A DNA stretch of 7,603 nt from a virus. Lineage: Duplodnaviria; Heunggongvirae; Uroviricota; Caudoviricetes. Numbering within the stretch: position 1 is the first letter of the stretch; each line of letters starts with the position of its first letter. The position numbers are program-made. The DNA lies in IMG/VR virus record IMGVR_UViG_2713896777_000003; one strand, given 5' to 3'. Positions 3,001 through 6,000 of this stretch are shown here, piece by piece.

Positions 3001-6000
3001 ATTCACTCGTTGGAATGAATACACAGTGCAGTGTTTATTCGTATGCCTGTCTTTTAACCACATCAGGCTCGGTGGTTCTCGTGTACCCCTACAGCGAGAA
3101 ATCGGATAAACTCTATTCACCCCTACAGAGAGAATGATGGAGATTCACCGATGAGTAACTGGTGGCAGGAACTATTACGTTTCTTCCTGCGTGGTCTTAC
3201 GCTACAACAGTTAATTCATATGCTTATTATTTTAATTGCCTTGATAATAATCACCCCAGCATCAATTAAAGAGTGGGTAGATATAAGGAACCCCGAAATA
3301 CTTCCAGATCACTGGATGTATTACGCAATGCTTTTGTGTATCAGTTATGTTCTGAACAGGGGGATGGAGTTTATATTTCTGGCATCTTCAGACAGATATA
3401 AAAAATATCTCAGTAAGAGAGATGAGGCTAAAGTAATTGTGGAGACTGAGCGCCTATTCAATTCTCTGAGTATTCAGGAAAAAGAGGTTTTAGCATTTGC
3501 TGTTATGGCAAATAACAAAATCGTACTTAAGCACGGCGATCCGGTCGCTTTATCTCTTATGAGAAAAGGCCTTCTCCATCGCTCAGGTGTGACTTACAGC
3601 GCGTCAGGTAAAGAGAAATTTGTTATACCTGACGTCTGGTTCCATGAGTGTTATATGCGCTTTGCTGGTAAAGCTGATGAGCTAATTTAGTTCCTCTACG
3701 GCGGGGGGGATCGTCACCTCGCTGTCAGTTGTTTTGATTTCCGGTAGCCTGCCGCGTAAATGGCTACGTTTGGAAGACAAGTTGAACCTTCATATTTTCT
3801 GGTCAACGTTGTCAGAGTTATAACTTCTGCTCTCATTGCTGGTTTGCGCTTGCATTGCAAGACCACTCGTGAAGGGGTTGGCCTGTGTAGCTTGTCGGAG
3901 CTAATCGCCTCCTGACTTTGCAGGTTTGCGCGACGAGCTCTACGGCGAGAAGCTGCGGTGCCTTTAAATTCTGTTTTTCTGGACATAGATTCCTCCCGAA
4001 TAAACTTTGGCGATGCAATCTCGAAGCTCCTCCTGAGACGGTTACTTCGGCATTGCATCCCACAGCTTATGTGGTTGGGTGATCTGGCTTTTCAGCCACG
4101 TAGTCGAGTGTTCGACGTTGTTTAAAGAGCCTGCCAGTCTGCTCCGTTTGGCTTACAGCGTCCTGCTGATGAGTTGACTTTATCGAAATGATAAACTGAT
4201 GGCAATAGCAAAATGATAAATTGTTTGGGTTTTCAAATATCCTGTTGATTATTATGGTTTTTTATTTGATTGCGGGAATTTATCAGAAGGAATGAAGAGA
4301 CTTGAGGGGGATCAGAATTTCGTGGTTTAGAAAGTTGTATCTATCAATTTTTCAATAAATACAATTGGTTAAGGTGTTATTAGGTGTGGGGATCGTGAGG
4401 CAAAGAAAACCCGGCGCTGAGGCCGGGTTCTGTCATCTAACTTAAGTATCAAGCCGCTTTTTGTGAATGATTGATGTGAGCTTCAAAGTCGCGGCGTAGA
4501 TTTTGAACGCGCTCTACACATCCGCGCATTTCAGCCAAAAGCTTACTAACGGCAGTATAGTCAAACGCTTTAGTCATTTTTTTTCCCCTCGTTTAAATGT
4601 AAGGCTCAACATCAAGGGCTGCTATTGCTGCGCACAATGCGTCAGGATCGTCAGCATCGATGGCTTGAGCCAGGTCATTAGCCAGTATAAGTAACTTATC
4701 GATGACAGCGATTTCGCTGGTCTTATCTACACGAAAGTATGGGAGCAGAGCATTACATACGTCTCTGAATGTCCGTAATTCTGCGACAACGTTCGAAAAG
4801 GTAGGATCTTTCTTACGAAGATCCACCAATGGCGCTACTTTAGCTGTTTTCAGCATTGCACTAATCTCGCCAATCATTGTTCCATGCAGACGATTAAATT
4901 CATCAACAGCTCGGTCATGCAAGCTCTTGTTGATTGGCAATACGTTTTGGGTCACTAACTATACTCCTTATATAGGTGTTCGCCAACAGATTTTCAATAT
5001 GACTTGGGCGATTTCTGAACAATAAGCACGATTTAGCAATGATTAATTGATGTTAAGCACAAATATCTCTACATCGTGCATTTTTAACTATTTATACACA
5101 TAAAATCTAATAAATGGATATAAACCTTATGATGATTTTTCTCAATCGAATTGAATAATGATCTCTATCACATCACCCAAACGTCTCTTCAGGCCACTGG
5201 TTACCAGCTATGTGACGATGAAGTCACGAACTTTTCAGCCACTCCCTTGCCTCGATGTCATCCAGATGGCGAGATTGCTTCAGAATACCAGCCACATACT
5301 CCACCTTTGCTACTTGATGATAAGGCAACGTTATTGGCCTGTGGTCCTGGTTGATGCTTGTAAATTGGTATTCTCCATCTCTGTCATAGCCAAGAACTTT
5401 GATCATGTTGTGTCCTTCAACAGTTCTGACAAACACCTCATCCCCCGGGAATACTTTGGTGTTAGGCTCAATGAGTACATATTCTCCTGATTTTATTCTG
5501 GGCCACATGCTGTCTCCTTTCACACGAAGACCAAAGGCATCTGGATCATCGCTATAAATATTGAGCCACCCATCGCGCTCTTCGGTCATCTCGATGGCAC
5601 CATCAACACCAAGAATTGCCTCACCAACCACGCGCACTAACCCTTTTCTTACCTGACCGACAAAAGTTAAAGAATCTGAGCATGATGCAATTGGTGTTAC
5701 ATCATGTACCAAATCAAGCCACCCATTAGGTAACCCAAGTGCGGCTTCGAATTTTCTTGCTAGTTTATCCCCTATGTTTCGAGTGCTTTTTTCACCGGAG
5801 ACTTGCGTGAGTTGAGAAGGGCTAACTCCAAGCTTATCGGCAAAGCTTGCATTAGTGTTACCCGCGATTTTTTTATGCTCATCTAGCAAAAACGCCAGAT
5901 TCGATTTGCGAATATCTTTGTTTTCCATCCCACGATTCTCCCTCTATTTAGCAAATGGATAAATATGCATTTTGATAAATCTTCATTGCGTTTTATTTAT

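Follow-up and report, generated by a model that had tools for sequence, protein, structure and literature searches.

The window analysed here, the whole 7,603-nt stretch of the IMG/VR virus record IMGVR_UViG_2713896777_000003 (Caudoviricetes), is the immunity region of a lambdoid prophage. Between its cI repressor gene and the leftward promoter PL lies a cassette of two small genes, which an initial annotation made from the DNA by itself had marked as a possible exclusion, abortive-infection or toxin-antitoxin-like module, or a regulator with a partner. That interpretation is partly supported by our analysis, in that its claims of position, linkage and novelty hold. The cassette is an autonomous mobile moron, inserted in the slot between cI and PL but also away from repressors, and neither of its two proteins belongs to any characterised family. 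It measures ~0.8 kb, comprising a ~220-nt leader, the two genes and a terminator, and its genes and signals are as follows:

4593-4955, minus strand: large gene, 120 aa, GTG start (phrog_13858)
4964-4969, minus strand: Shine-Dalgarno (SD) sequence AAGGAG of the large gene, 8 nt 5' of the GTG
4449-4577, minus strand: small gene, 42 aa, ATG start (phrog_12503)
4585-4590, minus strand: SD sequence GAGGGG of the small gene, inside the 15-nt gap between the open reading frames (ORFs)
4402-4430, minus strand: intrinsic terminator closing the cassette, a 9-bp GC-rich hairpin (CCCGGC...GCCGGG) followed by the T-run UUUUCUUU

The two co-oriented ORFs of 120 and 42 aa lie at the coordinates first given for them, and the GTG, the AAGGAG, the 15-nt gap and the terminator are all present. 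Two statements of placement needed correction. The large ORF had been put immediately downstream of cI; in fact 268 nt intervene, including the ~220-nt leader and a 27-nt cI fossil described below. The cassette does sit between cI and PL, but its terminator is not just before PL, which lies ~200 nt further on. The terminator hairpin starts 18 nt past the small-gene stop (centroid -16 kcal/mol, z = -2.7 in the fold), and homologous hairpins were found 3' of every cassette recovered. The AAGGAG sequence is kept in 11 of 13 cassettes, and an SD-like purine run is present in the 13-30 nt inter-ORF gap of the homologous loci listed. Fusion of the two ORFs by stop-codon read-through was considered and rejected: the window has them in one frame, whereas other loci have gaps of 13-20 nt.

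Homologous loci were gathered from IMG/VR, GTDB genomes, metagenomes, the Proteus phage Pm34 and encoding contigs. Every intact locus had the same order, namely, a large gene (117-133 aa), the short gap with its SD sequence, a gene of 42-47 aa and a terminator, and the pairing held down to 37% identity among prophages of Enterobacterales. The two genes are thus always inherited together wherever the DNA is intact, and the description of them as a tightly linked, conserved pair is borne out by the recurrence of pair, spacing and terminator in all of these loci. Both ORFs are under purifying selection and encode proteins: against diverged homologues, the ratio of nonsynonymous to synonymous divergence (dN/dS) was ~0.05 at a dS of 1.19 in the large ORF, and 0.07 at a dS of 2.36 in the small one. 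A search with the small protein found no relative in any contig lacking the cassette; there were two extra matches, one an internal-deletion derivative of the cassette (locus L055) and the other, in a T4-like contig, judged spurious. In L055 the decayed cassette (2813-3014) stands behind the same cI as in the window, and its deletion joins large-gene residue 36 to small-gene residue ~11. Between the window and another locus (L016), dS was 1.19 in the large gene and 0.14 in the small gene, which points to a recombination breakpoint inside the cassette.

The initial annotation found both proteins unrecognisable, and so did we. Neither had a match in Pfam, NCBIfam or PADLOC (in PADLOC-DB 2.0, zero families at E <= 10), and PHROGs lists both families as 'unknown function'. 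A Pfam scan of 31 family members returned scattered sub-threshold noise only, designed helical bundles were the sole matches in a profile search against PDB sequences, and we found no literature mention of the cassette accessions, the PHROG ids or the Pm34 products gp26 and gp27. The prediction that both proteins would be soluble and helical agrees with AlphaFold2 (AF2) models that are all-helical and with the lack of any transmembrane segment, the maximum 19-residue Kyte-Doolittle averages being 1.22 (large protein) and 0.34 (small protein). A secretion signal was seen in neither.

An exhaustive profile search of 1.84 billion representatives yielded a large-protein family of 36 representatives at 50% identity. 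The AF2 model of the large protein (predicted local distance difference test, pLDDT, of 82) contains helices only, at residues 5-40, 43-47, 53-73, 79-101 and 104-115, and suggests a spectrin-like, acidic three-helix bundle with ~35 residues per side; the isoelectric point (pI) is 4.9, and ranges over the family from 4.2 to 6.2. Conserved positions are F20, L35, A38, K39, P42, L46, P51, L60, A96 and I99, together with an invariant C-terminus, ...AIAALDxxPY[IV]-COOH. The acidic C-terminus remarked on at the outset is present, but it is less telling than this invariant terminal PY[IV] and the -AA end of the small protein. Apart from one Lys and one Asp, all conserved positions are hydrophobics, prolines or the terminal tyrosine. 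A HEPN-like Rx4-6H motif, or any other catalytic motif, was sought and rejected: no conserved polar residue capable of catalysis was seen save that Lys and that Asp. This conservation looks like that of a scaffold or interaction surface and not like an active site, and with no catalytic-looking conserved residues the large protein is more likely to act by binding or blocking than by catalysis. Nor did the Pfam scans detect a DNA-binding domain in either cassette protein.

Relatives of the small protein formed 25 clusters, all unnamed, in a profile search of 5.8 billion proteins, and every cluster with a named organism came from Enterobacterales. The AF2 model is a single helix (residues 7-41, pLDDT 91). 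Asp6, Leu14 and Cys20 are invariant and the length is nearly fixed; the pI spans 4.2-9.5. At the C-terminus, 22 of the 23 aligned sequences end in -AA (KAA, QAA, LAA, KKAA, RKAA) and the remaining one in -KKIA, while further, distant loci end in -KKVA; the eight residues preceding these -AA, -IA or -VA ends are variable. Known C-terminal degrons of ClpXP fall into C-motif 1, of the form xAA (LAA in the ssrA tag; also NAA, PAA, EAA), and C-motif 2 (RRKKAI, RAKKVA, HARKVA) (PMC9775585 Table 2; PMC12723719). In sequence, the small-protein ends match these two classes, the xAA form and a form with two basic residues before [AV]-[AI].

The upstream neighbours of the cassette fell into 15 sequence clusters, and the sampled representatives (10 of 10) were repressors with a helix-turn-helix (HTH) and an S24 domain. 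The cassette follows at least 10 different CI repressors. At one locus (L005) a cI 98% identical to that of lambda leads straight into the same leader and cassette, which there replaces rexAB; this confirms the rexAB-equivalent position claimed for it. Elsewhere the cassette stands behind a 130-aa Rac-type HTH repressor without an S24 domain, and its sites away from repressors are after an Arc-like gene, beside DinI, UmuC, integrase, tail-fibre and lysis genes, and, in one case, beside an IS1595 transposase next to enolase.

The slot itself has varied contents. H-19B, with the same cI type as the window (L074, AF034975, 2635-3977), carries there an unannotated higB (PF09907, 4.5e-30), an HTH higA and a 93-aa ORF; AU5Stx1, also of this cI type, has just a 47-aa ORF; and phages with lambda-type cI have rexAB (lambda) or two other hypothetical genes (HK542). 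The gap between cI and N has been described as a highly transcribed mosaic hotspot, home of the RexAB and BstA abortive-infection systems (PMC8585504). The earlier view of the slot as a cargo hotspot is upheld both by that report and by higBA in H-19B, the hypothetical genes in HK542 and rexB in lambda.

The family occurs only in temperate phages and prophages, and these belong to Enterobacterales. Of 50,697 phage records one, that of the temperate phage Pm34, had the cassette; of 72,556 plasmid records one had it, and this was just 2.2 kb long. In complete E. coli genomes it was found in 89 of 5,426 (~1.6%), at >= 99.7% identity and with both genes annotated in all of them. It is enriched in prophages of Shiga toxin-producing E. 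coli (STEC) O26, O103 and O111, yet present across Enterobacterales, ranging from Escherichia to Proteus, Xenorhabdus and Dickeya. For the cassette plus its flanks in the window (4400-5230) there is 100% identity to prophages of E. coli O103, O26 and related STEC chromosomes, in which both ORFs are labelled 'hypothetical protein'.

Upstream of the large gene lie the leader and, overlapping the start codon, a conserved DNA block:

4956-5172, minus strand: AT-rich leader or 5' regulatory region (GC 0.32-0.36), which travels with the cassette
4944-5003, minus strand: conserved DNA block spanning the start codon (~-48 to +12), with two overlapping sigma70-like matches and the SD sequence
4969-4997, minus strand: first sigma70-like match, TTGAAA (4992-4997), 17 nt, TATATA (4969-4974)
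4958-4986, minus strand: second sigma70-like match, TTGGCG (4981-4986), 17 nt, TATAGT (4958-4963), also returned by the promoter scan
5173-5199, minus strand: fossil 3' end of a lambda-type cI (QWPEETFG*), seen in translation and collinear with the intact lambda-type cI of L005

The leader is identical behind three different cI genes and is common to cassettes adjoining DinI or UmuC genes. The 27-nt fossil follows the stop of the H-19B-type cI now resident and precedes the leader. It shows that the cassette once stood directly behind a lambda-type cI and that the immunity gene was exchanged later, and it marks this old swap by recombination near 5200. From cI to the cassette, a scan for intrinsic terminators returned none, so the repressor transcript should read through the cassette, as it does in lambda from cI into rexA and rexB.

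Conservation of the block extends to +12 and is far above that of the coding sequence: positions -25 to -1 show 84-88% identity between cassettes with saturated synonymous sites, whose codon third positions are 33-41% identical. An upstream ORF at 4915-5022 was rejected as a gene, since it reflects the DNA conservation of the block and not coding. The two sigma70-like matches overlap and are 11 nt apart, and the start sites predicted from them lie in or past the SD sequence, or past the GTG. At one locus (L029) the block lies ~50 nt 5' of the start codon, so something besides the SD sequence must account for its retention; candidate roles are those of promoter, operator, pause site or an element like aba of BstA (see below). 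Inspection of the alignment found no LexA box in the leader. A structured 5' untranslated region was also rejected, the leader having a fold z-score of -0.22 and the SD hairpin only -2.4 kcal/mol.

The remainder of the immunity region is arranged as follows:

5224-5928, minus strand: CI-type prophage repressor of the H-19B immunity type (Peptidase_S24, 3.8e-16; weak HTH_3 match)
6042-6275, plus strand: Cro-like gene
4177-4225, minus strand: leftward operator (OL) and PL region, given for context, with operator-like repeats AAATGATAAA and a promoter-like TTGCCA-17-TAAAGT
3714-4058, minus strand: antiterminator N
3151-3690, plus strand: SieB, a superinfection-exclusion homologue (PF14163, phrog_1301)

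The CI of the window is the same 234-aa protein as in H-19B and AU5Stx1. To the left of the cassette the operator-like repeat occurs at 4186 and 4211, and this OL/PL flank has 90.6% identity to H-19B and other Stx phages. The SieB gene opposes the PL operon in orientation, and with it the prophage already has one exclusion gene near the cassette. Further features of the window lie outside this region. A run of 50 N (masked or unknown bases) at 6543-6592 falls within an ORF at 6414-6746, in the position of cII in the identical H19 prophage. On the minus strand, 1927-2787 encodes a 286-aa, Ala/Glu/Lys/Arg-rich, coiled-coil-like product, whose counterpart in strain H19 has an internal stop and is listed there as a TolA-like pseudogene. 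The ORF at 389-862, also on the minus strand, ends in ...DDSIPF, which resembles the partner-binding tail of bacterial single-stranded DNA-binding protein (SSB); it is probably a phage SSB gene and adjoins a gene for an ERF-family recombinase. Sub-threshold Rfam matches to snoRNA at 7127-7246, on both strands, are almost certainly spurious and probably due to repeated or palindromic DNA (origin iterons) in the replication gene.

As a working model, we tentatively favour, at somewhat less than an even chance, a two-protein module expressed in the lysogen in which a labile small subunit controls the large one, with exclusion or abortive-infection-type defence as the outcome. The cassette would be transcribed in the lysogen by read-through from the repressor transcript, and perhaps also from its own promoter-like block; either source would put the products in lysogens. 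The large bundle and the small helix probably form a complex, judging from their matching modelled helix lengths (~35 residues each). The small subunit would be turned over fast through a ClpXP-type C-terminal degron, and while present would restrain or license the large protein. A disturbance of gene expression, for example by an infecting phage, would shift the balance between the two, and the large protein would then act on a phage or host target in the cytoplasm, bringing about exclusion or abortive infection. Such logic would be toxin-antitoxin-like, without the known toxin-antitoxin folds. A more specific form of the model strikes us as doubtful: a new kind of prophage immunity module made of two non-enzymatic helical proteins, in which a ClpXP-timed 42-aa helix gates a 120-aa bundle that blocks a step in the development of the incoming phage or triggers abortive infection, with the start block serving as the control or self-immunity element of the resident phage.

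Several observations weigh against this model. Pfam, NCBIfam, PADLOC and profile searches gave no homology to any defence, toxin or antitoxin family, and the structural matches of the cassette proteins are generic helical bundles. The agreement of the small-protein ends with C-motifs 1 and 2 of ClpXP is a resemblance only. Conserved charge complementarity between the two proteins was considered and rejected, given the wide pI range of the small protein. In one metagenome contig the large gene is intact and the adjoining small gene frameshifted; either this is due to a sequencing error or the large protein alone is not toxic. Finally, from the positions of their predicted start sites, neither promoter match would yield an mRNA using the SD sequence and the GTG, and the transcription model is to that extent incomplete.

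Two other roles in the lysogen were weighed. The pair may be an accessory of lysogeny control that tunes the switch or the induction of the prophage it belongs to, perhaps by attaching to the repressor, to RecA/SOS components or to ClpXP. Proposals exist that lambda RexA aids exit from lysogeny, and ClpXP handles many SOS and phage regulators, so that a ClpXP-labile component would tie in. Such a role would suit the usual site of the cassette directly behind, and probably co-transcribed with, CI-type repressors of many specificities, the two other sites adjoining the SOS-related genes DinI and UmuC, and the restriction to temperate phages. However, with at least 10 unrelated repressor types served, and one repressor without S24, a specific repressor partner is unlikely; moreover, the cassette also occurs at tail and lysis moron sites and by an insertion sequence near enolase, and no DNA-binding domain was detected in its products. 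We think this explanation unlikely overall. We attach a similarly low likelihood to a moron for host physiology (lysogenic conversion), which would alter the stress response, proteolysis or growth for the benefit of the lysogen and would not have other phages as its target. Conversion genes typically have such a moron architecture and such varied insertion sites, the large protein has the look of a binder that is not an enzyme, and the enrichment in prophages of STEC O26, O103 and O111, with presence across Enterobacterales, would fit as well. On the other hand, neither protein resembles known conversion or virulence factors or has a secretion signal or membrane segment, and the family is a rare one, with 36 representatives (50% identity) found in 1.84 billion proteins.

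Classical addiction, with the large protein as a growth-arresting toxin, the small labile one as antitoxin and stabilisation of the prophage as the result, seems to us quite improbable. The toxin-first order of higBA, occupant of the same slot in H-19B, recurs here, GTG is the usual start codon of the first gene while the second has ATG and an SD sequence, and the C-terminus of the small protein is degron-like. Nonetheless, the cassette is virtually absent from the 72,556 plasmid records, and this near-absence makes a generic addiction pair a poor fit; in addition, neither protein has the fold of a known toxin or antitoxin or the DNA-binding domain of an antitoxin, conservation in the large protein does not look like that of a catalytic site, and the contig with a frameshifted small gene (possibly a sequencing error) has the large gene intact. 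Least probable would be counter-defence genes that the phage uses in its own infections. Among phage proteins, small acidic helical ones are often inhibitors of host defence proteins, and the large-protein family is acidic throughout (pI 4.2-6.2). Yet the cassette, being upstream of PL, is not covered by the early lytic transcript; no virulent phage among the 50,697 records has it, and a terminator and leader of its own are what lysogen-expressed morons typically have.

If the cassette protects lysogens, as the preferred model of a module controlled by its labile subunit would have it, the system would be mechanistically new and enzyme-free, with a possible bearing on phage therapy and the ecology of Stx phages; if instead it tunes induction, it would be relevant to Shiga-toxin release. 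In either event it offers a sound and cheap experimental lead, a candidate for a new lysogen-expressed module that is not a surprise in kind.

By every homology-based test of membership the cassette falls outside the systems with which it might be grouped, namely RexAB, the known toxin-antitoxin families, TomB-Hha and the systems of PADLOC; likenesses to several of them are found in arrangement. With rexA-rexB of lambda it shares two co-oriented genes downstream of cI, a terminator before OL/PL and, presumably, lysogen expression from the repressor transcript. RexA has ~279 aa, and RexB is a multi-pass membrane protein. The cassette products (120 and 42 aa) are soluble, have no membrane component and are related to the Rex proteins neither in sequence nor in fold; RexB is 144 aa long in the annotation of J02459. 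TomB-Hha is loosely similar in gene order and sizes (124 and 72 aa, vs. 120 and 42 aa), in being all-helical, and in a Cys of the small protein that is functional in TomB-Hha and invariant in the cassette. Membership was nevertheless rejected, with hhalign probabilities of 1.0% and 0.8% (with hand-entered TomB and Hha reference sequences) and no Pfam HHA or YbaJ match.

Like type II toxin-antitoxin systems in general, the cassette consists of two small, adjacent, co-oriented genes that are inherited together, but it belongs to no known superfamily, has no DNA-binding antitoxin domain, and its small protein is a single helix. The higB-higA pair of H-19B comes nearer, occupying the same slot behind the same cI type with two small genes, the larger, effector-like one of the cassette coming first as in higBA, and a labile second component is plausible. 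The two nonetheless differ in their domains, the cassette having neither the RelE-fold RNase domain of HigB (PF09907) nor the HTH of HigA, and in the near-absence of the cassette from plasmids. BstA of the Salmonella prophage BTP1 is a single large protein without homology to the cassette proteins. Like the cassette, however, it ends in a terminator of its own and is found downstream of the repressor gene in a wide variety of prophages (PMC8585504). Its aba element is a short self-immunity DNA that overlaps the gene start, as does the ~60-nt conserved block of the cassette, and an aba-like role for this block is pure conjecture.

The cassette also resembles the morons of lambdoid phages (the Hendrix/Juhala concept): it forms an additional transcription unit that has a promoter-like leader and ends in a terminator, it is present or absent between near-identical phages, and it occupies several classic moron sites. 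H-19B and AU5Stx1, for instance, have the same cI as the window and no cassette. The structural definition of a moron, a category that carries no functional meaning, thus describes the cassette well, with its own promoter as yet a putative one.

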